Virus record (IMG/VR): IMGVR_UViG_3300036774_000039
Coordinates: 1 to 61,028 of that record
Reading direction: 5' to 3' (one strand)
DNA: 61,028 nt
Source: a virus
Taxonomy: Duplodnaviria; Caudoviricetes
Made by a program: the position numbers and the translations under genes. Below, piece after piece: positions 2,871 through 32,819 of the stretch (position 1 is its first letter; each line of letters begins with the position of its first letter). The notes under the pieces were generated by a model. The model saw only the letters and a program-made list of their open reading frames with translations, made no database searches and was not told the DNA's origin.

Positions 2871-2998
2871 AACTCTGGAAACTCGCCGTGATACTCGGCC
2901 TCTTTGCTGCAGGATTCTATGCCGGCATGAGAGCAAAGGAAAAGTACGATAACGCCGATAACAGGCCCGAGGGGGGAGACCTATGGCCCTCCGAATAG
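2867..2998 (+). CDS. Small membrane peptide (not in ORF track)
   Basis: GTGA overlap with the upstream stop; translates MKLWKLAVILGLFAAGFYAGMRAKEK... Confidence 0.55.
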   Translation: MKLWKLAVILGLFAAGFYAGMRAKEKYDNADNRPEGGDLWPSE

Positions 2999-3180
2999 AA
3001 GGAAGCCGTGACCTCTGGGACTACTCCTGGAGGCAACGCAAGAGAATGTACCGCATCGTCCTGCAGAGGCCGTATCGGTTCTACCTGTTATTCCTCACCC
3101 TCTGGAGTGTGTTCGTATGCTGGAGGGCGTACGTGATCCCGATGATGAAATCAGCCAACCGAATGAAGGGCGTCGAATGA
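2983..3180 (+). CDS. Small membrane protein
   Basis: GGAG RBS, one hydrophobic segment, ATGA coupling to the next gene. Confidence 0.6.
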   Translation: MALRIEGSRDLWDYSWRQRKRMYRIVLQRPYRFYLLFLTLWSVFVCWRAYVIPMMKSANRMKGVE

Positions 3181-4046
3181 AGATCGAACTGAAAGAAATC
3201 GTCGAAATCAACGGGAAAAAGGTGCTTCGCGTCACAACTGTCGACGAGCGGTGGTACATCGACCTCGAGGTGAAGGACAGGCCGTTCCCCTCTATGACGT
3301 GGATCTCCGGCTACTATCCCAAGGGCAAGGGCTTCTACATCTGGCTCTCGCAACACGGATGGGACGAGGCTCAGGCGATCACACAGGACGCGGCCGACAA
3401 GGGGAGCAGAGTCCATCATGCGATCGACGCTCTCTTCAAGGGCGCGACGCTTCACATGGAAGACCGATTCCCTGACAGCGAGGGAGTCGAGGGGGAATTC
3501 TCTCTCGAGGAGTGGGAGTGCGTCATGGCGGTCAACGACTGGTGGAACGAGATGAAGAAACTCGGCGCAGTCGACATGAACCAGAGCGAGAAGACGGTCT
3601 ACAACCGCACACTCTGGTACGCCGGGACGCAGGACCGGAAGATCAAGATCCCCGCTCAGAAGGTGCCCACCAAAGTGAAGAAGGGCGAGGAGCCGAAATT
3701 CGAGATCATCCCCGAGCAGATATGGATATTCGACTTCAAGACGGGGCAGAATGTGTGGCCCTCTCACGAAATCCAACTCACCGGCTACAAACACTGCGAC
3801 GGGAACGAAGACGTCACCCATCTGGGCATCGTCCAGATCGGCTACCGGGCGAACAAGCGCGGGTGGAAAGTGACCGAAGTGCAGGATCAGCCGGCCCTCC
3901 TGAATGCAGCGTACACGATCTGGAAGAAGGAGAACGACGGGAAGAAGCCGGCCCAGAAAGACTATCCCCTCTCCATCTCGTTCGTCGATGGAGAAACATA
4001 CATCCAACTCGATACGGAGGCGTCGCGTGAAAGTAACCCAGCGTAA
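3177..4046 (+). CDS. PD-(D/E)XK exonuclease (Cas4/RecB-like phage exonuclease)
   Basis: Motifs PSMTWI, AADKGSRVH, E...YAGTQD, IFDFKTG and QLTGY. Confidence 0.8.
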   Translation: MKIELKEIVEINGKKVLRVTTVDERWYIDLEVKDRPFPSMTWISGYYPKGKGFYIWLSQHGWDEAQAITQDAADKGSRVHHAIDALFKGATLHMEDRFPDSEGVEGEFSLEEWECVMAVNDWWNEMKKLGAVDMNQSEKTVYNRTLWYAGTQDRKIKIPAQKVPTKVKKGEEPKFEIIPEQIWIFDFKTGQNVWPSHEIQLTGYKHCDGNEDVTHLGIVQIGYRANKRGWKVTEVQDQPALLNAAYTIWKKENDGKKPAQKDYPLSISFVDGETYIQLDTEASRESNPA

Positions 4047-17793: not shown

Positions 17794-18026
17794 CCCCCAA
17801 GACAAAAGGGAAGGTGAGGACGTTCAAAGGATTTTCGGCTACTCTGGATGTGCTATGCTGGGACGATAACGATATTAACTGCCTGACAACAGGGCATCCC
17901 GCCGAGTTTGGCTCATCCTGTACCTGTCCAACGGACTTCATCACCGACAAACCTTACGACGCGACGAAGTACCGCATCACCGTCACCGTCGTCTCTGAAC
18001 GCATCGAAAAAAGGAGGACAAAGTGA
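17790..18026 (+). CDS. Hypothetical protein
   Basis: Coupled ORF in operon. Confidence 0.6.
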   Translation: MTPKTKGKVRTFKGFSATLDVLCWDDNDINCLTTGHPAEFGSSCTCPTDFITDKPYDATKYRITVTVVSERIEKRRTK

Positions 18027-19358: not shown

Positions 19359-19609
19359 AATGTAAGTATTGCCCCCAGGAGATCGACTGGAAGCCCACGG
19401 TACGAGGGAAGAATATGTGTGTCGAGGCCCATCCCTACATCCGAGACGGATCAGAACCGCCCCGCAAAGGGACGTACATCGACGAGACTGGCGTGACGTA
19501 TCGGGAGACGCAAGTCCCCTGCAAGGTAAACGTCTGGCGCTGCCACTGGTCCGACTGTCCCGGTTCTGAGGAGGCGAGGAAGCAAAAAGCCCCGCCGAAG
19601 CGGGGCTAG
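19355..19609 (+). CDS. Small zinc-binding protein
   Basis: CKYC..IDW...CHWSDCP. Confidence 0.7.
   Translation: MKCKYCPQEIDWKPTVRGKNMCVEAHPYIRDGSEPPRKGTYIDETGVTYRETQVPCKVNVWRCHWSDCPGSEEARKQKAPPKRG
19584..19607 (-). terminator. Intrinsic terminator of the leftward operon
   Basis: Minus strand AGCCCCGC-TTCG-GCGGGGCT-TTTT. Confidence 0.8.
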
Positions 19610-19700: not shown

Positions 19701-19955
19701 TCAATCGGCCTCCAGGGTAAAAGATTCCAGAGGATCGGTCATTTCATCGCCATTGATGAAAGCCTCGACTGAGACATTCCCTCGATCATCCTTCAGGATA
19801 TAGATAACGAAGTCCCCCGCTTCGATCCAACATGAGGTCCCGTTGAGGATGAAGTCGCTCCCCGAGTCGTTGTCGGCCTCTTCGAGAACCGGCAGGTCTG
19901 CAGTATGCCGTAGCATCGTCATTCTCCTTTCGCTTTGGTGTGTGTGTGGATTCAT
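19701..19955 (-). CDS. Acidic hypothetical protein (start may be 19923)
   Basis: Last gene of the leftward operon; AAGGAG precedes the internal ATG. Confidence 0.65.
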   Translation of the reverse strand: MNPHTHQSERRMTMLRHTADLPVLEEADNDSGSDFILNGTSCWIEAGDFVIYILKDDRGNVSVEAFINGDEMTDPLESFTLEAD

Positions 19956-19964
19956 AGCCTCCTC

Positions 19965-20408
19965 CTACCTTGATTTGTAAAGAGCCCGAACGGATTTGTA
20001 CTGCCTCTCAGCGCCACCGCCCCCTGAAGAGTCCCGGCGAGCTATCTCCAGGTGGATGGGCATCCACCCCGTCGACTTGCCGACGATAAACCGCCGCGTC
20101 TCCCCGTATGTTGTCACAACCTCAACCCTCCACCCTTCCAGGCTGACTAGATAGGGGGAGAGGCCGACCGCACTCCTCCACCCCGTCTCGACGTTCTTTT
20201 GCCTCCCGAAAACGTGCAAGTCCTCATTGAAGTTATACGCCTTCATCGTCCCCTTGCGGATTCCCCGAGGGATTGGTTTCCCGAGCTCGGCAGCGAGCCC
20301 CCGCATTTCTCTGTCCAGATTATCGAAGCCATAGCAGGACCACCCCGAGCCGGTCGGAATCACGAAGAGTCGATCCTTTCGGTTTATCTTCACGCCGTTG
20401 TTTTTCAT
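19965..20408 (-). CDS. Phage hypothetical protein
   Basis: ATGA-coupled; LEGWRVEV...RRFIVGKSTGWMPIHLEI...SSGG. Confidence 0.75.
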   Translation of the reverse strand: MKNNGVKINRKDRLFVIPTGSGWSCYGFDNLDREMRGLAAELGKPIPRGIRKGTMKAYNFNEDLHVFGRQKNVETGWRSAVGLSPYLVSLEGWRVEVVTTYGETRRFIVGKSTGWMPIHLEIARRDSSGGGGAERQYKSVRALYKSR

Positions 20409-20650
20409 ATCATCCCCGCAAGACAAAGAACGCTGGCGACCGAATGCGTCCCGCAAGCCTCACAGAGACCCCGAGACTGATCGGGCTCGACTTCCTGGGT
20501 ATAGTCACAGTCAGGGTTGATGCAGATACCGAGTACCACCGAGTCGAATACCGCCGCCTCGATTAACTCGTCTCGGGTTTGCCCCTCTATCTCCGCGAGT
20601 CGTTCGAGTTTCGACTGTTCCAGAGTGAAGACACCGCAGACGTTGAACAT
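20405..20650 (-). CDS. Small zinc-finger protein
   Basis: GGAGGT RBS; GICINPDC..EVEPDQ..CEACG..SVLCLAGMI. Confidence 0.75.
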   Translation of the reverse strand: MFNVCGVFTLEQSKLERLAEIEGQTRDELIEAAVFDSVVLGICINPDCDYTQEVEPDQSRGLCEACGTHSVASVLCLAGMI

Positions 20651-20669
20651 ATTACCTCCCGTAATTATG

Positions 20670-20728
20670 AGCCTCATCAGTACCGGCATCTACCGGCAGA
20701 CCGGAGCCCCGAGGCCCCGGTTTCGGCT
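20670..20728 (-). ncRNA. Hammerhead ribozyme, type II (HHR-B)
   Basis: Minus strand AGCC-GAA-ACCGGGGCC(TCGG)GGCTCCGGT-C^TGCCGG(TAGATG)CCGGTA-CTGATGA-GGCT. Full core and all three stems; predicted cut at 20699/20698. Confidence 0.92.
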
Positions 20729-20904
20729 TAGGGCCGTATGTAGGCGTTGACACCGACCGTAACGGGTTTACCGTTGATTTGCGCGGTTGTCTCCTGGTTC
20801 CCATGACTGGAAGCCACGACGAGGGTTTTCCTCGAGGCGCTCGGCGCTGGGCTCTGCAGGTCCAGAACGATTGTCAGGCGCTTTCCATCGCTTGTAACAG
20901 TCAT
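20728..20904 (-). CDS. 58-aa protein bracketed by two hammerheads
   Basis: GGAGGT RBS; MTVTSDGKRLTIVLDL...SASRKTLVVASSHGN...VGVNAY. Confidence 0.8.
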   Translation of the reverse strand: MTVTSDGKRLTIVLDLQSPAPSASRKTLVVASSHGNQETTAQINGKPVTVGVNAYIRP

Positions 20905-20926
20905 AACTACCTCCCTTGTGTGTGTG

Positions 20927-20982
20927 AGTCTCATCAGTCCAAGCGTTCACTTGGAGACGGGGCAGAGCGCCCCGTTTCGACT
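20927..20982 (-). ncRNA. Hammerhead ribozyme, type II (HHR-A)
   Basis: Minus strand AGTC-GAA-ACGGGGC(GCTCT)GCCCCGT-C^TCCAAG(TGAACG)CTTGGA-CTGATGA-GACT. Predicted cut at 20956/20955. Confidence 0.92.
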
Positions 20983-21414
20983 TTATGCCTCTAGCAATTC
21001 GAGACGATGATCCACCCGAGGAAGACGAGCCCCAGGAAGAGTGCGAAAGACAGAAAGCCTAGTATTTCCTTTCGAGTGAGCGGTTCCACGGTGCCTCCTT
21101 TCAATCGGGATGTCTTTTGTCCACCCAGCATCGACGCAGAAAAGTAAAATCCAGTCAGCCACAAGGGAGCGCCTCCCGTCCCGTAACGAGCGAACAACCG
21201 CCAAATGACCCCCAGCCATACGGCCTAGAAACCCCTCGCGGTTCGTCCACGCCTCGACGATCCACGGTTCCCTGAATATCGCTGGCCCCCGGAAGCCTCC
21301 GAGCGGGCGTATTCCGTCCTGAATATAGACCACCTCACCGACCGGCACAGTCCCGCGCCGGTGAGGGGAGCCCGCAGCAAACCTCTGGGCGTAATATTGG
21401 TGTATCATATCCAC
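20983..21414 (-). CDS. Hypothetical protein
   Basis: Coupled to the upstream gene; PWIVEAW...GGHLAVVRSLRDGR. The 3' third overlaps the 32-aa peptide ORF. Confidence 0.6.
   Translation of the reverse strand: MDMIHQYYAQRFAAGSPHRRGTVPVGEVVYIQDGIRPLGGFRGPAIFREPWIVEAWTNREGFLGRMAGGHLAVVRSLRDGRRSLVADWILLFCVDAGWTKDIPIERRHRGTAHSKGNTRLSVFRTLPGARLPRVDHRLELLEA
20991..21089 (-). CDS. 32-aa membrane peptide
   Basis: AAAGGAGG before GTG 21089; MEPLTRKEILGFLSFALFLGLVFLGWIIVSNC. Confidence 0.55.
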   Translation of the reverse strand: MEPLTRKEILGFLSFALFLGLVFLGWIIVSNC

Positions 21415-21827
21415 GCCTGACGGAGTGCATACCCACCGTCCGAGTGCCGGCGACGCCGGTAGTCTGTCCCGTTGCTGTGGTCATTCGAGGGGCAGGAAGA
21501 GTGACGCGATCCATCACCGCGACCGGTGCAAATATGACCCTTAGGGAACATCCTGTAGGCAAGGTGATAAACGAGCTCGAAACCCATATCCGAGCCACAA
21601 CCGTGGATTACGATCCCATCCCCCTTGCAAATGTACCCGAGAACCCGCGAGGCATACCCCGAGAGATAGAGCGGGCCATCTGCGGTGAGTTTGTAAAGGT
21701 CGATCCTCCGAGACATCCCCGAGGCCGAGACGTGACGCAGTACCGTGTATACCGTATCGCCCGGTTTTAGGAACTTGTGGAGCATTTCCAGGGCGTGTGC
21801 GGTTTCCTCTTTCGTGGATCGTGGCAT
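21405..21827 (-). CDS. Phage hypothetical protein
   Basis: AGGAGGT RBS; LKPGDTVYTVLRHVSASGMSRRI...GCGSDMGFELVY. Confidence 0.75.
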   Translation of the reverse strand: MPRSTKEETAHALEMLHKFLKPGDTVYTVLRHVSASGMSRRIDLYKLTADGPLYLSGYASRVLGYICKGDGIVIHGCGSDMGFELVYHLAYRMFPKGHICTGRGDGSRHSSCPSNDHSNGTDYRRRRHSDGGYALRQAWI

Positions 21828-21835
21828 ATTACCTC

Positions 21836-22246
21836 CTATTGGTTAGAATATTTCGGATCGGTGGTAAGATGAAAAGTCTGTTTACGGTAACTCTCCAGCA
21901 TCCAAAGGCAACGCTTAACCGCCTCGCTCGCCTTATCGGTTTGAAAAAGTAGTGTGACGCTGTGGGAGGTGTCGGGGTCGATTTCAAAATTGATGCAGAA
22001 GCGCGGGAACGTCTCCCCCATTTCACGTTGATAGGCGTTCGGATGCTCGACCCACAGAGTCAGGACTGCAGAGTGCGCGGGGTCTGAAAACGTGGGAACG
22101 CTCGCCGAGAAACTCGGACAGGCGTTATTGTGCCAAGATTCGTCCTGCAGGACTCCATCAGAGACGAGACGGAGAATTGAGGAGGGAACGCGGTACGCTT
22201 TCCCGAATTCGCGTACCCAGAGAGGTTCAACAGTTCCGGTTGTCAT
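21836..22246 (-). CDS. Hypothetical protein (SWHNNACPSF motif)
   Basis: ATGA-coupled; DESWHNNACPSF...LWVEH...RE...RF. Confidence 0.7.
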   Translation of the reverse strand: MTTGTVEPLWVREFGKAYRVPSSILRLVSDGVLQDESWHNNACPSFSASVPTFSDPAHSAVLTLWVEHPNAYQREMGETFPRFCINFEIDPDTSHSVTLLFQTDKASEAVKRCLWMLESYRKQTFHLTTDPKYSNQ

Positions 22247-22533
22247 ACGCGCCCCCCGTCTTCGTCGGAATCGCTGAGGATCAGCACCGCGCCATTTTCG
22301 CACGTTGTAGGAAGGCCGAACGCGGGGGAGGAGGAGAAGAAAGAGAACGCGCCCCCGTCCGTCTCGACATAGACTGTTCCGTCTAACCGCTCCGCGATTT
22401 CATCGAAGGTACGGAGCCACCGCGAGACCGTGAGAACGTCTACAGGTTCCAGTCCCGAGGGATCGCCGTTGATAAGGTACGGAAGCGCCCATTCAGGGAT
22501 GTTGAGATCGTCGAAGCGCTGAGAGATTTTCAC
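22243..22533 (-). CDS. Phage hypothetical protein
   Basis: GTG start after AAAGGG; IPEWALPYLINGDPSGLE...FSSSPAFGLPTTC. Confidence 0.7.
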   Translation of the reverse strand: MKISQRFDDLNIPEWALPYLINGDPSGLEPVDVLTVSRWLRTFDEIAERLDGTVYVETDGGAFSFFSSSPAFGLPTTCENGAVLILSDSDEDGGRV

Positions 22534-22567
22534 CGTGAAGCCCTTTCTTGTTGTGGTTGAGGTTGAG

Positions 22568-22610
22568 GAGGGAGGAGGGGAGTCGAACCCCTCAGAGACC
22601 ACGCTCCCCC
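22568..22610 (-). ncRNA. tRNA-like minihelix (acceptor stem plus T-arm only)
   Basis: Intergenic; minus strand GGGGGAG-CGTGGTCTCT-GAGGGG-TTCGACT-CCCCTC-CTCCCTC. Confidence 0.55.
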
Positions 22611-22615
22611 GAGAA

Positions 22616-22954
22616 TCAATTAGCGCTGCAAGGAGTCCCGCGTTCCTGCGCTTCAATCGCCCGAACACGCTGAAGAACTTCGGCCTTAAATTCCTGTTTC
22701 TTGTACGCCAATTCGTGCGCGACGTTGACCGGAGCATGATAATTGACCCTGACATATACGGCAACGCGCCGAGCATCAGCGAGACGGAGAGAACCGCCCC
22801 AGCCGTAGGACTTCCCCGCCTTGGGTTTCCGTCCCTTGAAATCCAGATGGACAGTACGCTTAGAATTGTGGTTGACGATCCACCGAAGAAGACGAGCGAC
22901 CGGAAGGGGATAGACCCCGAGGCAATAGGCCGACCAATCACGAGAATGTGTCAT
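22616..22954 (-). CDS. Basic hypothetical protein
   Basis: GGAGGA RBS; contains VAHELAY, a near-HExxH motif. Confidence 0.65.
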   Translation of the reverse strand: MTHSRDWSAYCLGVYPLPVARLLRWIVNHNSKRTVHLDFKGRKPKAGKSYGWGGSLRLADARRVAVYVRVNYHAPVNVAHELAYKKQEFKAEVLQRVRAIEAQERGTPCSAN

Positions 22955-22956
22955 TG

Positions 22957-23134
22957 TTATTCCTCCACGGTTAGAGTATAAGAGCCCACCTTGTTTCCGT
23001 TGCTATCAACAATCTTTCCCCGAGGTTTGGCCCTCGGAGACTTTCACCGCGACAATGTGGAGAAGATGCGCGACCTCGGAGAACGGCTCAGGCTGGAACG
23101 CATCATTGTCAATCTTGAACGCGAGTGTGAACAT
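22957..23134 (-). CDS. First gene of the leftward operon, interrupted by a 1-nt frame change
   Basis: Frame 0 gives MFTLAFKIDNDAF...TSGK then stops at 23006. The +1 frame continues IVDSNGNKVGSYTLTVEE to a stop abutting the next gene. Confidence 0.6.
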
Positions 23135-23174
23135 ATAACCCTCCCTGTGGTTGTGTGCTTCCTTGTGTGCCTGT

Positions 23175-23203
23175 AATATATAGGGAGGTATGCCCGTTGT
23201 CAA
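23175..23203 (-). promoter_or_regulatory. Sigma70-type promoter of the leftward operon
   Basis: Minus strand TTGACA-17 nt-TATATT in the CCTATTGACAA context. Confidence 0.8.
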
Positions 23204-23398
23204 TAGGGAAGAGAAGAAAAAAGCGCCGAAGATAGAGCGGAAAGGCAAGATTGCTGCCGAACGCGCAACGCTGGAAAAGCAAGGAAAGACGCGGGAGAAA
23301 TGGAGAGATTCAACCCTCGAAATTGAGCGGGAAACACAAACCAGGTTACCCGAGAAAAACCCCTTGACATTGAACGGAATTCCCCGCAAATTCGACGC

Positions 23399-24067
23399 AT
23401 GGACGCCAAGAATCCACCCCTTGAAAACCCCGAGAAACCCCCCCGAGCTCTCCCCTACGCTCTGCCCTTAGAAGCCCCCGACAAATCAGGAAAGGGAAAA
23501 AAAGGAGGGAGACCTCGGAACCTCCTCCCCGAAGCGCCAGATGTCCGAACACTTGAACGCTACGCCTCTGCAGGATTAAGCGAAGAGCAACTGTGTTATA
23601 TGCTGGACATCGACAAGAAAACCCTGCAACGGTGGAAGAGGTTAGCGAGTGTCAAGAAGGCCCTTCGAGAAGGGAAGGCTAACGCGGTGACACACGTCGA
23701 GTCAAGCCTGTATTTATGCTGTGTTGGCTACTGGCACGAGGGGCAACGCATAGACCGCGCCGGGAATGTTGTCAGCATTAAGCAATACGAGCCCCCAGAC
23801 GTTCCCGCCATTCAGTTTTACCTTGCAAACCGCGACCCTGAAAACTGGAAACTGAAGACGAGCCTTGAAGCCTCGGGCACGTCCCGCGTTGAATTCGTGG
23901 GCATCCCCGAGGGACACAAGGAACGAAAGGCCCTTGCAGACGAGATCCGCAAGCGCCTTCTGCAGAACGCTGGGACGGACGGGGCTTCCTTGGCTCTGGA
24001 CGGTGGACGAATAGCACCGGCAGAAGGGGCGAAAATGGGCCCGAACGGGGAAGAGGTGAAAGAGTGA
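23399..24067 (+). CDS. Putative terminase small subunit (HTH)
   Basis: GGRP...GLSEEQLCYMLDIDKKTLQRW...ALREGK...VESSLY...PPDVPAIQFYLANRDPENW. Confidence 0.75.
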   Translation: MDAKNPPLENPEKPPRALPYALPLEAPDKSGKGKKGGRPRNLLPEAPDVRTLERYASAGLSEEQLCYMLDIDKKTLQRWKRLASVKKALREGKANAVTHVESSLYLCCVGYWHEGQRIDRAGNVVSIKQYEPPDVPAIQFYLANRDPENWKLKTSLEASGTSRVEFVGIPEGHKERKALADEIRKRLLQNAGTDGASLALDGGRIAPAEGAKMGPNGEEVKE

Positions 24068-24386
24068 AACCGCGAATCCAGAGCGCCAATAGCGAAAAAG
24101 ACGGGAAAACAGTTTCGACGCGCAGACCCCTATCACCTCACCACCCTGCAGATCCTTCAGGCTCCCGAGGCCCAGCCGGTCGACGGACGGACGCGCGGAA
24201 CCGGCGCGGGGCGCTCCCGGCCCCGAGGGGGGGCCCCAAAGGGAAACGCGAAAGCCGTTTCGCGCCGAGGTCTCCCCTTCAGAATCAGGAGTCCCTTCCG
24301 GTGTCAGTCTCCCGGGATGGGTATTCCCGAGGGGTAGTGATTTCTGACCGCAAAAAAAATCTGGGACAAAATCTGCGGGGTGAGAG

Positions 24387-24620
24387 ATGCTGATAACGGG
24401 GGGTGATTTGGAGGAGTTGAAGAAGATTGCTGAGGAGGTAGATTGGGGGAAGAGGAGGGAGAGATTGGAGCGTTGGATGGAGGCAAAAAAATCGGAGCAA
24501 AAGCCGGAGGTGGGATACGCAGGGGACCCGGCGCGGAACAGGATCAAGGTGTTCCCGGAGGGGGTTCAGGTGATGAAGACGAAGGCCCCAGTCTGGGATG
24601 AAAGGGATGGGATGGACTGA
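24387..24620 (+). CDS. Hypothetical protein
   Basis: ORF abutting the next gene. Confidence 0.45.
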   Translation: MLITGGDLEELKKIAEEVDWGKRRERLERWMEAKKSEQKPEVGYAGDPARNRIKVFPEGVQVMKTKAPVWDERDGMD

Positions 24621-24947
24621 ATGCGTGGACAGAACCAGAAATTGAAGGACCCGACGAAGCCGGCAGACACGATGGGTCACGTTCGCAAGACGCTCCTGAA
24701 CACATGGCGCCTGAAGAGGCCGGGGTGGACGCCGAAGAAATTCCGGGATATGAGAAAGGCCCTGGGGATGACACAGGCCGAGTTTGCCGAGGCCGCTGGC
24801 ATTTCGCCGAGGAAGGTGTTATCTTGGGAGAGCCCGAGTAGCAGTCAGGGGAGGCTCCCGAAGGAGGCGATGGTCGTGATCGAGTTTGTCCAGGATCAGG
24901 TCGTAAAAAAGGCGGGCGAGACTCTGACCAACGCGAAGGCCGAATAA
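24621..24947 (+). CDS. XRE-family HTH regulator
   Basis: FRDMRKALGMTQAEFAEAAGISPRKVLSWE. Confidence 0.8.
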   Translation: MRGQNQKLKDPTKPADTMGHVRKTLLNTWRLKRPGWTPKKFRDMRKALGMTQAEFAEAAGISPRKVLSWESPSSSQGRLPKEAMVVIEFVQDQVVKKAGETLTNAKAE

Positions 24948-24972
24948 ATCATAAACCAACAGGAGGTGTGCG

Positions 24973-25173
24973 ATGGCAGACAAGACGAAGGGCTCCAAGA
25001 CCACGATCAAACAGGGAACGGCGACGAAGCCGGCAGACTACACGCCGAAGTCGTACGGCGTGGCCCATCAGCATCCCCATCCCCCGCAGTTCGAGGTTAA
25101 CGGTCCGGGCGGGCTGACTGGCAAGGACGCCAAGGGTCTCTCCACCCTGACGGGCGGCAACAAGAAAAAGTGA
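24973..25173 (+). CDS. Small basic protein
   Basis: AGGAGGT RBS. Confidence 0.65.
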   Translation: MADKTKGSKTTIKQGTATKPADYTPKSYGVAHQHPHPPQFEVNGPGGLTGKDAKGLSTLTGGNKKK

Positions 25174-25258
25174 CGCTCACGGTCATCCATCTGGGGCAGC
25201 GATATTGGGAGACATCCCTCAGTCTGCCCCACGTCACCCACCAATGGAGGCCCGAGCA

Positions 25259-25549
25259 ATGGCAAAGTATAATTGGGATGTGACGCAGTTCCTCAAAGAG
25301 GACAACGGCTCGTTTTCCGGTATGAGGTTGATGGCGATCGTCATCATTGTCTCAGCCTGTTACGTCGCCCTCATCAATGGCGTCGCTATCGCCACAGCGA
25401 TCTCGTCGGGCAAGGCGATCGAGCCAGCAGTGATCGGGAATGTCGCGGGCTTGGTCGGTTCGATGATTACCGCTGCGCTCGGCATGAAGGCGTGGCAGAA
25501 GAAGTCCGAGGAGAAAGGGGGGCCCGGTGAACAAACGCCCCTTAAGTGA
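25259..25549 (+). CDS. Holin-like two-TM protein
   Basis: FLKEDNGSFSGMRLM, two TM helices, KAWQKKSE. Confidence 0.65.
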   Translation: MAKYNWDVTQFLKEDNGSFSGMRLMAIVIIVSACYVALINGVAIATAISSGKAIEPAVIGNVAGLVGSMITAALGMKAWQKKSEEKGGPGEQTPLK

Positions 25550-25985
25550 CTATGTCATCATGGTTATTGTTATTCTCATCGCGACCTACATCGCGCATGA
25601 GCTCTTTCCGAAGATTGAAATCCACAATAACACCGTCACCGTCTATAAGCGCGACACTATCACCGTCACGCTGAAGGAAGTGAAGTACGTCCACATCCCC
25701 GGTCGCATCGACACGCTCCGGGTCAAGGACGAGCCTCCAGCCGCCTACATGATAGCCGATACCACATTCCCCGACTCGGCACATCTGACAGCGGTGGCGT
25801 TCCTGCCCCCGCTTTCGTTTTTTAATGTTCAGTATCAGCCGGCACCACAGAAAGTCGTAACGCTTGAGAAGATTGTGACCAATACCGTTGTCAAGACTGA
25901 GACTGTGATTGATCTGCCGTGGTTGGTGGGGGCTGCGGCCATTGGCGTTGCTGCAGGGATCTACGTTGAGCGGCAAGCCAAGTAA
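25527..25985 (+). CDS. Spanin-like membrane protein
   Basis: N- and C-terminal hydrophobic segments around a Thr/Val-rich beta region; follows the holin candidate. Confidence 0.5.
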   Translation: MNKRPLSDYVIMVIVILIATYIAHELFPKIEIHNNTVTVYKRDTITVTLKEVKYVHIPGRIDTLRVKDEPPAAYMIADTTFPDSAHLTAVAFLPPLSFFNVQYQPAPQKVVTLEKIVTNTVVKTETVIDLPWLVGAAAIGVAAGIYVERQAK

Positions 25986-26180
25986 GCGGGGGCTCAGGGC
26001 TTGGGGGAGGCTCGAGCCCTCGTTATTTCGCGACCAGGCGCACCTCTTTGTGCCGGCACAGAAACGCGACCTCCTGAACCGTCTCCGATGGTTCATCAGA
26101 AAACACACCCGCTTCAGCACGTACCTGAAACTCTCCCGCTGGATCGGATGGCCCCAGTCCACAATGGAAAAGGTGACGGA

Positions 26181-26885
26181 ATGAAGATGACTATGCGAGA
26201 AGGTGTTGTCACGATCGACACGCATATCGACTGGCAGACGGTGAAGATGATTTTTGCTATCGCCGTTATTGCATTCGGCCTCACGCTTGCCCTCGAAGCC
26301 TATAAATATCTGCCTGTATTTCATCCTGTCCATGCGGTACCGGGAGAACTTCCGCCTCCATCGCTTCCAACCGTCAGTCCACTCGACTCGACATGGCAGT
26401 CTATACAGGAATTGAAGGCCCAGATCGAAAAGGCTCAGGTCGTGTACGATAACGCCCGACTGAAATTCTATCGAGAACTCGCAATACAGAAAGCTCCCGA
26501 AGGAATGCCCTGGAGGGTCCTCTTTGGGCTCTGGCGTCAGGAATCAGGACTCGATCACACTAGTCATGGAGATGGTCGGAAGAACAAACATGGTGACATG
26601 GTCTGGAGTGCCTTCGGCCTGGGGAACGTGCATGTACGGACAGCGCAACTTCAGTATGGCTCAGAGATTAAAGAGGCCGATCTCCTGAATCCGATCGTCG
26701 GCGGTGCAGTCTCGGGAAAAGTCCTTGATGACTATACCAAGATGTTTCATGGAGACTTAATCTACGGGATCGCCGCTTATCAACAGGGACCGGGAGTTAC
26801 AAGAGCCGCCTTCCGGGATCACCAGATGCCGACGAATCTCTCGTATGTTGTCCGTGTCCTGAAATATGCCGCCCTTGCAGAATGA
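26181..26885 (+). CDS. Membrane-anchored lytic transglycosylase (SLT-like)
   Basis: TM segment, then WRQESG...AFGLGNV...LLNP...IAAYQQGPG...YVVRV. Confidence 0.75.
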   Translation: MKMTMREGVVTIDTHIDWQTVKMIFAIAVIAFGLTLALEAYKYLPVFHPVHAVPGELPPPSLPTVSPLDSTWQSIQELKAQIEKAQVVYDNARLKFYRELAIQKAPEGMPWRVLFGLWRQESGLDHTSHGDGRKNKHGDMVWSAFGLGNVHVRTAQLQYGSEIKEADLLNPIVGGAVSGKVLDDYTKMFHGDLIYGIAAYQQGPGVTRAAFRDHQMPTNLSYVVRVLKYAALAE

Positions 26886-27277
26886 GACTCCTCATCCTCA
26901 TACTCTGGGCCGGAGTTTCTTTCGCCGGCGAGAAGTCGGTCGTCTTGGAGCCATCACCCATTGCCACCGACTCTTCCGGCATCGTTCTTTCCCTCTCAGC
27001 CCTTCTTGTGTCCTATGATGTCATGTCGACCATTGATATGTTCCAGACCGATAAGGCTATCCGAGGGAAGTATTTCGTCGAGGCCAACCCGCTTCTCTCC
27101 GGTATTGTACGAGATCGTACAGCGTTCTTTCTTGTCAAGATTGGCGGGATGATGCTCGTTAATCTGACGGTGAAACTCCTCTGGAATCAGTCGAGAACCC
27201 TTGCCTGGTGCGTTGCCGCTTTTGCGCTTATCGTCCAAAGTTACGTCACAATCCACAATGACCGGGTCCTGCGATGA
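26882..27277 (+). CDS. Membrane protein (EANPL motif, DUF5658-like)
   Basis: D..ST...VEANPLL...FFLVKIG...IHN. Confidence 0.65.
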   Translation: MRLLILILWAGVSFAGEKSVVLEPSPIATDSSGIVLSLSALLVSYDVMSTIDMFQTDKAIRGKYFVEANPLLSGIVRDRTAFFLVKIGGMMLVNLTVKLLWNQSRTLAWCVAAFALIVQSYVTIHNDRVLR

Positions 27278-27504
27278 GTGATGTGCCGTGGGTCTACTGC
27301 GTGAAATGCAGGACGATGCTCTTCGGAGAGCACGCTTCAAACTATCGGACTTGCCCGATATGCAGGGCCGAATTTTCGCTCTATGGATTTCCGACGCAGG
27401 AGAAGATGCGGGAGTCTGTTCGTCATTATGAATCACTACTTAACGAGGGCCAACATGCTACTTTTCATGGTACTATGGGCGTCACTCATCTTCGCCCTGG
27501 TTGA
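27274..27504 (+). CDS. Small zinc-ribbon protein
   Basis: CVKC...CPIC. Confidence 0.5.
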   Translation: MSDVPWVYCVKCRTMLFGEHASNYRTCPICRAEFSLYGFPTQEKMRESVRHYESLLNEGQHATFHGTMGVTHLRPG

Positions 27505-27940
27505 CTATTTCGGCTACAATACGATCGGCGTCGCCAAGCATCTCGATCTCACCATCTTCAAGAAAGTCATCACATTCGACCTCCAGAAAAAGATTCTTAG
27601 CCTCACGCCGTACCGGTGGTGTCAGATTGTACTGGGGGCAATTCTCGCCTATCTCCTCTACGCAGGACCGGGGCTTCTCTCTGTCGCGCTGTGTCTCGTC
27701 CTGTATTTTACGTTCTTTGATGATCTCCTGTTCTATGGCCTCTCGGAAGCCCTGCAGAAATTTCCCAACGATAAAGGCGTCTTCCAGAGAGAAGTTATGG
27801 GCAATCAGGTTGTCTGGGCGTGGTGGACCGTCTATGGCCTCATCAGAGGCAAGAGAACCGAACCTATCGCCGGCATTATTCTTGTACTCCAGTCGGTAAT
27901 CGGGCTGGCCCTTGTCGTCGCTATCTGCGTGGTGCTATGA
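27428..27940 (+). CDS. Multi-pass membrane protein
   Basis: Several hydrophobic helices; DLLFY and WAWWT motifs. Confidence 0.65.
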   Translation: MNHYLTRANMLLFMVLWASLIFALVDYFGYNTIGVAKHLDLTIFKKVITFDLQKKILSLTPYRWCQIVLGAILAYLLYAGPGLLSVALCLVLYFTFFDDLLFYGLSEALQKFPNDKGVFQREVMGNQVVWAWWTVYGLIRGKRTEPIAGIILVLQSVIGLALVVAICVVL

Positions 27941-28152
27941 TGGAAAAAGTCGATCCCGAGACTGTCGAGACTCCGAACACGGAAATGGGGATGAGGGCGT
28001 TCTTCAAGCTCTCGAAGAAGGACACCGAACTCGCCATCATGTCGTATATCTACAAACTCTACCCCGACCTTGCCGTAGACTGTATGGTCGAGGTGCTGTG
28101 CGCCGCAGAAACGGTCGCGGTCGCATGGAAGAAGAAACCGGAGGCCGAGTGA
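27937..28152 (+). CDS. Hypothetical protein
   Basis: ATGA and GTGA coupling. Confidence 0.55.
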   Translation: MMEKVDPETVETPNTEMGMRAFFKLSKKDTELAIMSYIYKLYPDLAVDCMVEVLCAAETVAVAWKKKPEAE

Positions 28153-28757
28153 TCCCCTACGATGACCAGTACGTGCCAATCCGTGTTGGGGTGATCCTTA
28201 ATGATATGCTCGAGGCCGGCATCACTCGGGTAAGGCTGAATTTCGCGGTTCATCAGACATACGCTGAAATCTCTTCCGGCGTCCGTGACCCGGAGGCCCA
28301 GGTCTACGACGCGATCCTGCCCAATGCGCGGAAAGCCGGGATTGAAAATCTATTCCCCGAGTTTGTCAATGGGCGCACATCACACGCTGCGTCCGATGGC
28401 CTCATAGTAGCCCCGGACGAGATTTTTACCGCATTCGGGCTTCATCAAATCTTCTGGTGGCAGAGGACGTGGTCGAAACTTCTAGGCGAGAACTACATCG
28501 TCAATCCGGCCTACGACGCGGTCTGTCTGGAGAATTCCATCAGGCCGGACGGGACGAATCGCAAAGGGACGGTGATCCATCAGTCGCCTCATACCAGAGG
28601 GACTGCGGTCGACTACACAACCTCTTCCATCGGAAATAATTCCATCAACGATGTCCATGCGGTTTTGATCGACGCCGCCAAAGACCCGCTCTGCAAGATC
28701 AAGGCGCTGACATTTGAACTGCAGAATCACTGTGTCCACTCAGACATACTCCCATGA
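28149..28757 (+). CDS. Peptidase M15-like zinc peptidase (endolysin candidate)
   Basis: SIR...SPHTRGTAVDY...HCVH zinc-binding motifs. Confidence 0.65.
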   Translation: MIPYDDQYVPIRVGVILNDMLEAGITRVRLNFAVHQTYAEISSGVRDPEAQVYDAILPNARKAGIENLFPEFVNGRTSHAASDGLIVAPDEIFTAFGLHQIFWWQRTWSKLLGENYIVNPAYDAVCLENSIRPDGTNRKGTVIHQSPHTRGTAVDYTTSSIGNNSINDVHAVLIDAAKDPLCKIKALTFELQNHCVHSDILP

Positions 28758-28969
28758 CACCAGAACAGGCATATCTGAAGCGCAAGGTTCGAGAGAGGGT
28801 GAAGTGGGATAGTTTCTTGAAAGACTGTAAGATCATTGCCCAGACGCATCCCAAGATCGTCCTTGTGATGATTGTCGCCGAAGTCTGGGGGAGCGTTGTC
28901 ATCGCCCGACACATGCTCGAGACGATGAGCATTATCGACATCGTTAAAAAACTGATCTTCCTGGATTGA
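28754..28969 (+). CDS. Hypothetical protein
   Basis: Coupled ORF immediately before TerL. Confidence 0.5.
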   Translation: MTPEQAYLKRKVRERVKWDSFLKDCKIIAQTHPKIVLVMIVAEVWGSVVIARHMLETMSIIDIVKKLIFLD

Positions 28970-30603
28970 AAGAGACCGCTCACATAGACCTCGACAAGAT
29001 GACGCCGGAGGAGATGGCATCGTATCTGCCGTTCCTCGACGCCGCAGTTTCTCAGGACGAGAGATTGAATCCGCTTCTTACGTTCGTTCCCAACGGCAAA
29101 ATCGAAGAGGTGGTCAATGCAGTCGGAGAAGACCAGGACAAGTGGATTTTCATACTGGCCTCAGCCAATTCCGTGGGGAAAACAGCCGGGACTATCAACA
29201 TTCTCGGCAACATCATCTGGGGTCCTCAGAACGAGTGGTTCCACGGTCCTCGCTATACTGCGTGGAATTCTCCGAAGAAAATCTGGTACATCTCCGAGCA
29301 GTCATCCCTCAAAGACTTCATCGTCGGGACAGACCTTAACGGCCCCTCAGAATTCCACAAGTGGTTCCCAGCCGGCCGCTTCACATGCGTCAAATCCGGC
29401 TACGATTACATATCACGCATATCAACTGATAATGGATGGACGATCACCTTTAAGACATTTGACATGGACGCCTCGAAATTTGAGTCGGACAAGGTCGGAG
29501 TGATCGTCTTCGATGAACCGCCACCGGAGTCGATCTTCAATGCCGCCCTCTCCCGGCTTACGCTGGGCGGGATCGTCATCATGCCGATGACGCCTCTCTT
29601 CCAGTCTGCCTGGGTGAAGAATCGGCTCGTCGATTCCAGTCTCCCGCACGTCTTCCTCCTTACGGCTCACATGCACGCGAACTGCAAACAGTGTAGTGAG
29701 CAGGGGAAGCCGGGGAGCAAGCGGGGGAGACTTGACCACGACTGGCTCCTGGAGTGGGCATCCCAGTTTGACCCTGAAGAAAGGGAGGCAAGGGAAAATG
29801 GCACGTTCGCGCATCTCGTCGGGCTTGTTTATCAAAACATTCATCCCACGTACCATCGACACAATTACCCTGCCGATCACTTCAATCAGGAAGAATATCG
29901 GATCTATTGCGCTATCGACCCCCATGACCGGAAACCTCCCGCGATTGGATGGTTCGCTGTTGACCGTTATGAGAACGGTTTCGCGATCGACGAATTCCCA
30001 TTCTGTCCCGACTTCAAGCCCTTCAACGACATCAAAGCCTGGCCGCTGAAGACTGAGGAGAACTGCGAGTGGATCAGAAAGAAGGAGCTCGCGAATGGAT
30101 GGGAACCACAGAAGATCGTCCGGGTAATGGACCCGAACTGGGGGAGGAAGCCCGATCAGACCATCGGCCTGACAACGCAGGAAATCTATGCGAAAATTGG
30201 CAGGAAGATGAACTACCCCCTCAATTTCAGCCTGAATGTCAATGATGACCTGAAGGCAGGACACCGGCTCGTTCGGGATTCGTTTGCATTAAATCCTGAT
30301 AATCAGACCCGGTTCAAGATAGGAATGATGCTTCACAATACCTGGCATGCCCTTACAAACTATGCCTATGTTGAACGGCAGGGGAAGGCGCTGGACGCCA
30401 AAGGGATCTCCGAAAACGTGGGAGAGAAGTTTAAGGACTTCACTGACCCGTCCCGGTATTTCTGGATGTTCTTCAAGAAGCCCTCCGTCCCGAAGAAGGA
30501 GCAGGAGGAGATCCATACGCTCGACGATCTGGTCTACAAAAAGATACTCCCTCGAGTGAGAGCTAAGGCTAACAAGACACGAAGAAACTGGTCACAAATC
30601 TGA
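28966..30603 (+). CDS. terL: Terminase large subunit
   Basis: Walker A SANSVGKT, Walker B VIVFDEPP, coupling motif MTP, EREARENGTF, and nuclease AIDPH. Confidence 0.9.
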   Translation: MKETAHIDLDKMTPEEMASYLPFLDAAVSQDERLNPLLTFVPNGKIEEVVNAVGEDQDKWIFILASANSVGKTAGTINILGNIIWGPQNEWFHGPRYTAWNSPKKIWYISEQSSLKDFIVGTDLNGPSEFHKWFPAGRFTCVKSGYDYISRISTDNGWTITFKTFDMDASKFESDKVGVIVFDEPPPESIFNAALSRLTLGGIVIMPMTPLFQSAWVKNRLVDSSLPHVFLLTAHMHANCKQCSEQGKPGSKRGRLDHDWLLEWASQFDPEEREARENGTFAHLVGLVYQNIHPTYHRHNYPADHFNQEEYRIYCAIDPHDRKPPAIGWFAVDRYENGFAIDEFPFCPDFKPFNDIKAWPLKTEENCEWIRKKELANGWEPQKIVRVMDPNWGRKPDQTIGLTTQEIYAKIGRKMNYPLNFSLNVNDDLKAGHRLVRDSFALNPDNQTRFKIGMMLHNTWHALTNYAYVERQGKALDAKGISENVGEKFKDFTDPSRYFWMFFKKPSVPKKEQEEIHTLDDLVYKKILPRVRAKANKTRRNWSQI

Positions 30604-30611
30604 CAAAGCAC

Positions 30612-30640
30612 TTGCGTTAAGTCTTCCAAGGCTCTATATT
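30612..30640 (+). promoter_or_regulatory. Candidate promoter upstream of the portal
   Basis: TTGCGT-17 nt-TATATT in the short intergenic gap. Confidence 0.45.
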
Positions 30641-30656
30641 TGCATCGGGGGTTAGA

Positions 30657-32819
30657 ATGTCGCGGGAACGCGCAAAACAGATTCGCATAACAGCAGACGC
30701 ATGGTTCGCATCCATTTATGGATACGCCCCCGGACCTATCCCCGCCGAAGGTGACTCCACCGTACCAAACTACGTCGATGCACTCTGGAAAGACTCGAAG
30801 GACTGGCGCATACGGTCGTTCGATAACCGGATGGAGTACAACGATCCTTTTGAATTCTGGAGAGATGCCAGACGTCTCGAGACGGGACTCCACTGGGAAG
30901 TCTGGGGCAAGCGCAACGCCGGCGACGAAGACAAGTGGAAACAGGAAATCGTCGACGATGAAATCTCGAACCAGATTCGTGTTCGGAAATCCTACCTCAC
31001 CGCAAACTGGCACGACATCTCTGTTCTCCCGAACCTGAAGAACTTCACTACGATCCTCGACCAGGAGCGCGGGAAGACGAAGTGGGGAGACAAGATGATC
31101 CAGACCGTTCACCGGGGACTCAATGAGGGTATGGCCTGTCTGAAGACCATCCTCGACAGGACGGTTGACCCCGATGGACTCGCCAACGAAATCCTCATCG
31201 ACAACGCCGGCATATTCCCGACCCCGTATTCGTACGGGATCAACAAACTTGACGGGACGTGGTATCTGATCCATGCCGAGCTCCAGAGCGTTCAACAGAT
31301 CAAAAACGAATTCCCCCATGCCGACGATATTCAATTCGATCAGGTGCAGGAGGAAATCGCGAAGTATCTGAGGATCGACCTCGACACGACCACGCCTCAG
31401 ACGTACGTTCATACGAAACTCGTCCCCGTCATGCGCCTGTATATGGATGATCCGAAATCCGTCCGGGCTCCGCATGACCAGGAACAGATCGACCTCGAGC
31501 ATCAGGCTCTCCAGAACGGTCACGACCCACAGGTCGACGATGTTGATAACCACGTCGAGCATGTCAAGCAGCACCTCGACTGGCTGGATGCGATGCACCA
31601 GACCGAGCCACAGGATTCCAAGGAAGCCGAACTCCGCGATGCTCAGACGGAGTTAATGGCGATGCACGTCGAGGATCATCACAAGGCGGTTCAGAAAAAG
31701 AGAATGCTCGGCCTCTCCCCCGGCGTCTACCAGAAATACCCGCTCGGTAGAATCATCACGGTTGCCGGTGGCGTCCTGATGGATGACCGACCGAATCCTT
31801 TCCCGATGGACTGGAGAAAACTCTTCCATTTCTGGTACTGCGAGAAACTCCCGAATTCGTGGTGGGGTCGCGGGGTGCCGGAGATCCTCTGGAATACGAA
31901 TCGGGTCGAAGATACGATGCTCTCGAGGACCGCCGACATCGCCCTTACGGTTGGGATGCCAAAGCAGTATTTCGACATCCAGGATAAGGACAACGTCGAA
32001 ACTCAGGGTATCAACAATGATCCTCTGCAGCCCGGTTTCGTTTCAAAGCCTCCTGTATTTCGTACGGGACAGGCTCCGCGAGAGAACATGGAGATTTACC
32101 AGGCCATGAAGACCAACGCCCAGAAGACTCAGGCGGTCTCAGGCGTGAACTACGGTCAGGCGCAGAACGCACAGCAAAGCGGAAAACTCGTCGAGACTCT
32201 CCTCCAGCAAAGTCAGGTCATCATTTCGGGAGAAGCCAATCAGCGGTTGAACGAGACGATCGAGGAGATCATTGAAGCGAGGATCGAGCTCTATAAGGTC
32301 GCCTACAAGGAGCCGAGATTCTATTTCATCAACGGTCAGCCACAGGCGATCGTGCTATCCGATCTTCTCTCGAAATGGAATGTTGTGACTCCCGGAGGGG
32401 AGATGAAGGAACAGGAGATACCGGCATTTTCAATCACGGTGCGCCCGAACTCCAATTTCCCACAACGGTTCGAGTATCAGCTTGCCTTCTTACTGCAACT
32501 TGCTCAGACACCCAGCCCCGATGGAACGCCGCTTGTTCCGCGAGAAGCGATTCTCGACATCGTCGCCAACCTCTACCCGCAACTCGGCAGAGACGGAGAG
32601 TATTACAAGATGTCCGAGGCTCTCAAAATCGGTATGCAAGTCATCGCCCAGCAGGAGCAGAAGCAGAAAGAAGACCAGAAGACGATGAAGAACATCGCCG
32701 GGAAAATAAGGAATAAGGGCATCAACGAATTACTGAACAAGGGAAACCTTCAGGGAGGCGATAATGGAGGAGCAGAATCAGGAAGTCCCGGTGGCGCAGG
32801 AAGCCCCGGTAACGGGTGA
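30657..32819 (+). CDS. Portal protein (podovirus-type)
   Basis: 720 aa directly after TerL; WWGRGVPE, VSGVNYG...SG, and a Gln-rich helical C-terminus. Confidence 0.8.
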   Translation: MSRERAKQIRITADAWFASIYGYAPGPIPAEGDSTVPNYVDALWKDSKDWRIRSFDNRMEYNDPFEFWRDARRLETGLHWEVWGKRNAGDEDKWKQEIVDDEISNQIRVRKSYLTANWHDISVLPNLKNFTTILDQERGKTKWGDKMIQTVHRGLNEGMACLKTILDRTVDPDGLANEILIDNAGIFPTPYSYGINKLDGTWYLIHAELQSVQQIKNEFPHADDIQFDQVQEEIAKYLRIDLDTTTPQTYVHTKLVPVMRLYMDDPKSVRAPHDQEQIDLEHQALQNGHDPQVDDVDNHVEHVKQHLDWLDAMHQTEPQDSKEAELRDAQTELMAMHVEDHHKAVQKKRMLGLSPGVYQKYPLGRIITVAGGVLMDDRPNPFPMDWRKLFHFWYCEKLPNSWWGRGVPEILWNTNRVEDTMLSRTADIALTVGMPKQYFDIQDKDNVETQGINNDPLQPGFVSKPPVFRTGQAPRENMEIYQAMKTNAQKTQAVSGVNYGQAQNAQQSGKLVETLLQQSQVIISGEANQRLNETIEEIIEARIELYKVAYKEPRFYFINGQPQAIVLSDLLSKWNVVTPGGEMKEQEIPAFSITVRPNSNFPQRFEYQLAFLLQLAQTPSPDGTPLVPREAILDIVANLYPQLGRDGEYYKMSEALKIGMQVIAQQEQKQKEDQKTMKNIAGKIRNKGINELLNKGNLQGGDNGGAESGSPGGAGSPGNG

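Follow-up and report, generated by a model that had tools for sequence, protein, structure and literature searches.

Two type II hammerhead ribozymes bracket a conserved 58-amino acid gene in an apparent operon of an uncultured phage

Two type II hammerheads around a single small gene

The DNA analyzed here is the complete IMG/VR virus record IMGVR_UViG_3300036774_000039 (Caudoviricetes), which carries direct terminal repeats and is called the window over its whole length of 61,028 nucleotides (nt). Two complete type II hammerhead ribozymes, HH1 (20982-20927) and HH2 (20728-20670), could be identified on its minus strand, the coding strand of this region, and between them lies one open reading frame (ORF) of 58 amino acids (aa; 20728..20904, minus strand). 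Both elements had been predicted in an initial annotation, and all of its coordinates, including the cuts at 20956/20955 (HH1) and 20699/20698 (HH2), proved to be correct. From the motifs, their rarity, their covariation, their genomic context and their recurrence near related genes, it is concluded that HH1 and HH2 are probably active and punctuate a leftward polycistronic phage transcript of ~3.6 kb.

Read along the minus strand, HH1 starts with the 3' strand of stem II (AGUC, 20982-20979) and GAAA (20978-20975), which are followed by the stem III hairpin, the GUC ending at 20956, the stem I hairpin, CUGAUGA (20937-20931) and the 5' strand of stem II (GACU, 20930-20927). The same order was found in HH2, with AGCC (20728-20725), GAAA (20724-20721), a stem III of 9 bp, the GUC ending at 20699, stem I, CUGAUGA (20680-20674) and GGCU (20673-20670). 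Stems I/II/III comprise 7/4/8 base pairs in HH1 and 7/4/9 in HH2 with zero mismatches; loops close stems I and III and stem II is open, which is the type II topology. The core consensus (C3 U4 G5 A6 N7 G8 A9, G12 A13 A14, the pair A15.1-U16.1 and H17, here C) is complete, with all 13 consensus positions intact in both elements, and the core-adjacent pairs 10.1-11.1, 1.1-2.1 and 15.1-16.1 are G-C, U-A and A-U, respectively. By the three acceptance criteria of Perreault 2011, both HH1 and HH2 count as hammerheads. All three stems differ between the two elements and pairing is nevertheless preserved, so that HH1 and HH2 do not represent two repeats of one unit and, as previously proposed, do not stem from a recent duplication. 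Judged from their sequences, they are a textbook-quality pair of type II hammerheads.

A strict descriptor, which demanded the full core, the A15.1-U16.1 pair, H17 and perfect stems and allowed the topologies I, II and III, matched only HH1 and HH2 in the window and gave a single match in total over 100 dinucleotide-preserving shuffles, a chance expectation of ~0.01 per window. Elsewhere in the 61-kb genome, neither the descriptor nor an Rfam scan by E-value identified any further hammerhead or other ribozyme; weak matches at 57401-57459 (13.7 bits) and 17930-17988 (11.3 bits) were discarded as noise. When each element was folded alone, the minimum free energy (MFE) structure was the three-way junction, at -23.1 kcal/mol for HH1 and -30.1 kcal/mol for HH2 (z of -2.9 and -2.1, respectively). 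Covariation was assessed on six type II-shaped sequences, three of which are seeds of the model to which the alignment was fitted, and within this small set 94 of 94 cells were paired and both sides had changed in 11 of the 16 pairs. None of 500 shuffles reached the observed level, and in slid controls 27-40% of the cells were paired.

The ORF upstream of HH1 ends with a TAA at 20985-20983, 1 nt before HH1, and HH2 overlaps the TAA of the 58-aa ORF by one base, its final A. Behind HH1, a CA-rich leader (20905..20926, minus strand) carries the Shine-Dalgarno (SD) sequence AAGGGAGG (20917-20910), 5 nt before the ATG, and behind HH2, the SD GGGAGG of the next ORF is located at 20660-20655, 9 nt after the end of the ribozyme. 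HH1 and HH2 thus occupy two junctions between a stop codon and a ribosome-binding site (RBS) in what appears to be a single operon of ~3.6 kb, in which all conserved ORFs from 22941 to 19701 are located on the minus strand, tightly packed between promoter-like and terminator-like sites. The predicted cut sites are 257 nt apart, and the RNA that cleavage at both would release contains the SD, the start codon ATG (20904) and the stop codon TAA (20730-20728). The prediction of a monocistronic 257-nt RNA that holds the RBS and the complete 58-aa ORF (20904-20728) therefore holds from the sequence.

The 58-amino acid gene family and its RNA neighbours

As judged from its conservation, the bracketed gene is real. 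In metagenomes, 578 relatives of the protein were found at E ≤ 1e-3, nearly all of 58-63 aa, and at least 511 loci of the family are present in bacterial genomes, with Geobacter, Chlorobiaceae and Syntrophobacteraceae metagenome-assembled genomes among the 80 that were listed. The family shares the invariant core PS..KTLVVA...GN, and no match to a Pfam or PHROG family was found. A confident AlphaFold2 model with a pLDDT (predicted local distance difference test) of 90.7 contains six strands, which describes a small all-beta protein; no match in the PDB was obtained for it with Foldseek (E ≤ 0.001) or with VIA-align wide (Z ≥ 2). In the ESM Atlas, every cluster matched by the protein bears the name 'hypothetical protein', and viral taxa are recorded in two of the three shown. 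Among GenBank phages, neither the protein (tblastn) nor the region 20600-21100 (blastn) gave a match, and an exact 38-nt pattern taken from the leader and the 3' half of HH1 was not found in viral contigs when the record of the window itself was left out.

In the public gene call (P0001), the protein is 68 aa long and starts at an AUG within the CUGAUGA of HH1, the extension covering window positions 20905-20934; this longer version is an annotation artefact. The closest relative (P0002) is 89% identical and encoded on a contig of 8,713 bp, and its gene call carries the same 10 extra N-terminal residues. This extension points indirectly to conservation of the leader and of the 3' half of HH1 in a sister phage. 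A gene start of the 68-aa type inside CUGAUGA could also serve as a mark for a hammerhead located directly upstream of a gene.

The initial annotation had asked whether homologs of the 58-aa gene are also flanked by ribozymes. For this survey, 25 viral, 29 metagenome and 80 bacterial-genome loci (of at least 511) were collected. Seven duplicates (L015, L023, L029, L039, L049, L052 and L053) were dropped from the counts, which gave 48 distinct viral or metagenome loci with the window included. Searches were performed with R1, a covariance model built from three type II sequences, and with the descriptors, Rfam and ARAGORN; Rfam was run at gathering level on 40 loci and at an E-value threshold on 15 loci, and L051 and L054-L058 were scanned by R1, the descriptors and ARAGORN only. 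In the 80 bacterial-genome loci, hammerheads were sought with R1 and the descriptors, and twisters with one short signature.

In 8 of the 48 distinct viral or metagenome loci, a cleavage or processing element on the strand of the gene was found directly against the 58-aa family gene (the window, L024, L050, L012, L009, L020, L006 and L037). A type III hammerhead in L024 (2908-2976) ends 10 nt before the ATG and scored 41.5 bits with RF00008, below the gathering score of 48.5. In L050, a consensus type I hammerhead (699-752; 5, 5 and 8 bp in stems I, II and III) begins immediately behind the stop codon; it was identified by the descriptor only and is not listed by Rfam at E ≤ 0.5. Type II-shaped elements with fully compensated stems are located at the stop codon of the homolog, like HH2, in L012 (877-930) and L009 (637-699). 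Both sides of the homolog (2977-3165) in L020 (duplicate: L049) are occupied by twister-P5 ribozymes, both above gathering, and by its layout this locus is a ribozyme-punctuated operon. In L006 and L037, 15 nt separate the stop codon of the homolog from a tRNA. Somewhat further away, at 240-500 nt from the homolog, L030 and L025 each contain a consensus type II hammerhead on the strand of the gene (35.7 bits each). When the search was extended to the full records that contain L024 (51 kb) and L025 (32 kb), the one hammerhead near the 58-aa homolog, within 500 nt of it, was the only one found. Across these loci, phages have, as far as sequence can tell, repeatedly placed cutters of different classes beside the 58-aa family gene. 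A related-locus search with the protein of the phrog_10759 ORF of the same operon yielded one distant locus (L004), in which no hammerhead was present.

Some further features of these loci were observed. By eye, the 5' strand of stem III of the L024 hammerhead holds the likely SD (GGGAG), which is predicted to be paired until cleavage frees the upstream strand; this type III hammerhead could, on its sequence, be a natural cleavage-activated RBS. L020 (1021-5349) derives from a complete phage record of 82.9 kb (G003) with 15 twister-P5 matches, 12 of them above the Rfam cut-off, arrayed on one strand (+) over 9.4 kb (21418-30802), and in the 6-kb locus each of seven twisters begins within ~2 nt of the stop codon of the preceding ORF. 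By eye, a repeated G+C-rich motif could be seen on both sides of the homolog in L047 (about 1520-1630 and 1805-1880), a tRNA-like acceptor/T-arm minihelix just after the stop codon in L017 and L018 (about 3177-3245), and similar hairpins on both flanks in L045; none of these flanking structures had an Rfam match at the thresholds used.

Proposed cleavage of the operon transcript and its alternatives

Self-cleavage into hairpin-capped pieces is the most likely role of HH1 and HH2, given their sequences and placement. We infer that the genes are co-transcribed, from the promoter candidate near 23.2 kb to the terminator candidate near 19.6 kb, and that the transcript is cut in vivo. Each ribozyme, beginning at the stop codon of the preceding ORF and ending a few bases before the next RBS, would fold locally upon transcription and cut after its GUC. 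At the 3' end of the upstream piece, a 2',3'-cyclic phosphate would then lie 2 nt behind the G+C-rich hairpin of stem III, and the downstream piece would begin with a 5'-OH and the stem I hairpin. Because only the 4-bp stem II joins the products of a type II hammerhead, the pieces should separate after the cut. Three mRNAs would result, one for the upstream genes, the 257-nt monocistronic mRNA for the 58-aa protein and one for the downstream genes, and their decay and translation would be uncoupled. In the MFE structure of the excised 257-nt RNA, a hairpin is retained at each end. Hairpins at 3' ends block 3' exonucleases, and 5'-OH groups and 5' hairpins evade the 5'-end-dependent attack of RNase E/J. 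From this knowledge of bacterial mRNA decay, slower decay and uncoupling of the three segments would be expected because of the 5'-OH and hairpin ends.

Several observations weigh against the two elements being active ribozymes in one operon, the first being their covariance-model scores. RF02276 (Hammerhead_II) aligned to both over its full length, but with 31.4 bits for HH1 and 28.7 bits for HH2 both remained below the gathering score of 37, and a gathering-level Rfam scan lists neither. The low scores have an explanation: RF02276 is built for a stem II of 2 bp and a conserved 3' tail, but in HH1 and HH2 stem II comprises 4 bp and the tail differs. The corresponding E-values were 4.6e-6 and 2.3e-5 when calculated per genome, 2.9e-4 and 1.5e-3 when 901 nt were searched, and 0.02 and 0.099 when the whole window was compared with 4,227 families. 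Second, in an equilibrium fold of 501 nt the hairpins I and III persist and the probability of stem II is ~0; activity would therefore depend on local co-transcriptional folding. Third, a pseudoknot between loop I and the tail is needed for fast type II cleavage at low Mg2+, and here such a pseudoknot comprises at best 3-4 bp. In HH1, 4 bp can form only if the last pair of stem II is lost, and in HH2, 3 bp can form directly after stem II. As published, the type II consensus has a short stem II and a pseudoknot of at least 4 bp between loop I and the tail after stem II, the latter in the majority of type II hammerheads and not in all (PMC3088659), whereas the elements of the window combine a 4-bp stem II with a weak or absent pseudoknot. 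Furthermore, the promoter and terminator of the operon are consensus matches only.

Relatives of the gene provide two further points of this kind. The elements at the position of HH2 in L012 and L009 have altered cores (C for U at position 4 in L012, CCGAC-A in L009), which indicates that hammerhead-shaped elements can persist without a consensus core. The core CCGAC-A is also found in L010, where a type II-shaped element at the stop codon (about 337-420) is further degraded and internally rearranged; going by their sequences, the elements of L012, L009 and L010 are either decaying ribozymes or examples of a tolerated core variant. In addition, the descriptors and R1 identified a hammerhead in 0 of 80 bacterial-genome loci, most of which are of the same length, have 59-62% identity to the query and may be non-independent; this argues against a tight link between gene and ribozyme. 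The 58-aa gene therefore does not need a ribozyme.

With scores below gathering, no convincing pseudoknot of at least 4 bp, a stem II that is not predicted in the long context, and loci that keep the shape at the same position with altered (L012, L009) or further degraded (L010) sequences, HH1 and HH2 might be hammerhead-shaped elements that cleave poorly or never in vivo and either have a structural role, for instance as spacers or protective hairpins, or are decaying. This explanation is considered unlikely. All core positions are intact in both copies despite the compensated divergence of the stems, which counts against decay since neutral decay would strike the core as often as the stems, and the low chance expectation of the descriptor also argues against it. 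Moreover, activity was observed for those consensus type II hammerheads of phage-like regions that have been put to the test (PMC8782182, PMC3088659). For two of them, loc 2 and loc 3 of D. vulgaris, Olzog et al. 2021 (PMC8782182) demonstrated self-cleavage both in vitro and, with cyPhyRNA-seq, in vivo; like HH1 and HH2 they are two type II hammerheads on the same strand, there ~245 nt apart in a phage-like region. Clustered prophage hammerheads have also been reported to cleave in vitro and in vivo (PMC3088659).

The product ends of a hammerhead, 5'-OH and 2',3'-cyclic phosphate, suit RtcB. The initial annotation had accordingly suggested that the ends of the 257-nt RNA might be joined, and such joining by a host RtcB-type ligase or by the ribozyme itself would give a circular, translatable mRNA for the 58-aa protein. 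Besides the end chemistry, the SD and complete ORF on the piece are compatible with this idea, as are its size, which is in the range of the metazoan retrozyme circles of 150-300 nt (PMC7761336), and the frequency of RtcB, which is common in prokaryotes and present in 10 of 14 control genomes. No RtcB and no PF09414 RNA ligase is encoded in the phage genome, where the search was made and outside of which a host enzyme would lie. As HH1 and HH2 are not repeats, closure would create a chimeric ribozyme whose hybrid stem II (GACU with AGCC) does have the A.C mismatch previously described; this mismatch would hinder re-cleavage, as had been argued, but it would hinder ribozyme-catalysed ligation equally. 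In the excised 257-nt RNA, the pairing probability of the hybrid stem II is ~1e-5. Circular products had been raised as an alternative for clustered prophage hammerheads in 2011, and when circular or spliced products were sought there, none was detected according to the authors, with the data not shown (PMC3088659). In titles and abstracts, no report of a circular mRNA made by ribozymes was found for any phage or bacterium, although not all matching papers were inspected and subscription journals were not covered. The circular mRNA thus found no support here and is judged quite improbable, with a small chance left for joining by a host RtcB that needs no ribozyme fold. An extended version, in which a host RtcB makes the circle, the mismatched chimeric ribozyme lets it stay closed, and the recurrent bracketing by hammerheads I/II/III, twister and tRNA reflects selection for an excised, exonuclease-proof message, is given a similarly small chance.

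In viroids, satellite RNAs and retrozymes, the ribozymes bounding a circle are repeats of one unit and ligation rebuilds the native ribozyme (PMC7761336, PMC6765202). The locus in the window resembles viroid and retrozyme circles in that a segment of a few hundred nt is bounded by two hammerheads, with ends that can be joined by an enzyme of the tRNA-ligase or RtcB type. However, those circles are non-coding and replicate or retrotranspose, whereas here an SD-led ORF is located in the operon of a DNA phage, the two hammerheads differ, and the phage encodes no reverse transcriptase, RtcB or PF09414 ligase. A related proposal would be that the pair marks a mobile ribozyme-bounded cassette, retrozyme-like or derived from a viroid-like RNA captured as DNA, and the presence of several ribozyme classes beside the 58-aa family could reflect the mobility of such a cassette. 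This proposal is very improbable, as a reverse transcriptase (RVT_1) is missing from the phage, the two ribozymes at its flanks do not repeat each other, and the gene occurs without hammerheads in the 80 bacterial-genome loci; the variety of classes and topologies points to ribozymes acquired independently beside a resident gene rather than to one moving unit.

The preferred reading, cleavage of a polycistronic transcript by two active hammerheads, has published precedents. Multiple hammerheads flank single genes or short gene blocks in prophages, for example as a triple around ardA in A. tumefaciens, so that the hammerhead-bracketed gene arrangement and the idea of a circle are already in print (Perreault 2011, PMC3088659). 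As in those clusters, same-strand hammerheads of type II topology bracket one gene of a phage polycistronic unit in the window, and processing into single-gene mRNAs was proposed there as it is here; the clusters differ in that they are located in prophages of cultured bacteria and not in an uncultured complete phage, and the bracketed gene in the window belongs to another family that has no name. Processing of polycistronic transcripts has also been suggested as a ribozyme role in a review that describes twister and hammerhead ribozymes as sharing gene neighbourhoods for an undetermined reason (PMC6765202). The twister-P5 ribozymes of L020 fit this description, as they take the position held by hammerheads in the window and differ in class.

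The locus therefore adds an example and not a principle. The modest new point, at the level of sequence, is that a defined, widespread family of 58-aa genes is found repeatedly beside interchangeable RNA cutters. Reviews still describe the biological role that self-cleaving ribozymes play in bacteria and phages as undetermined (PMC6765202), and the window offers an unusually clean test case, namely a complete phage with exactly two hammerheads, both located at stop-to-RBS junctions around one conserved gene. With the defined family and a construct of ~500 nt, the effect of ribozyme punctuation on mRNA stability and expression could be measured and the circle question of 2011 could be settled.

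Other genes and signals of the operon

The apparent operon is flanked on its left by plus-strand genes, including a DNA methyltransferase gene, and on its right by a plus-strand block that begins with the small terminase subunit at 23399. No tRNA was identified in the phage genome. Four promoter-like sites were found in the region, compared with 1.5 expected, and the candidate for the operon is a sigma-70-like site on the minus strand (23175..23203; TTGACA, 17 nt, TATATT; 11 of 12 consensus positions). At the other end, a hairpin of 8 bp (7 G-C) followed by a T run (19588..19607, minus strand) resembles an intrinsic terminator and, judging by its sequence, is likely the end of the operon.

All further ORFs of the operon are on the minus strand. 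The first (22243..22941) encodes a DUF6926 domain protein (PF21977, E 8.8e-14) and is followed by a 140-aa ORF (21405..21827) of phrog_12365, a family with no assigned function. Downstream of HH2, an 81-aa ORF (20405..20650) with no Pfam or PHROG match, an ORF of phrog_10759 (19965..20456; E 3.6e-37; function not assigned) and the last ORF of 84 aa (19701..19955) complete the operon. The ORF that ends directly before HH1 would encode a protein of 143 aa (20983..21414) that belongs to a conserved family. The family comprises 187 proteins at E ≤ 1e-3; those listed are mostly 99-107 aa long and cover 66-69% of the query, and conservation is confined to approximately the first 99 residues. An alternative ORF for a hydrophobic protein of 32 aa (20991..21089, minus strand), which has no Pfam or PHROG match, starts with a GTG behind AAGGAGG, a strong RBS, and overlaps, in another frame, the unconserved tail of the 143-aa ORF (window 20983-21117).

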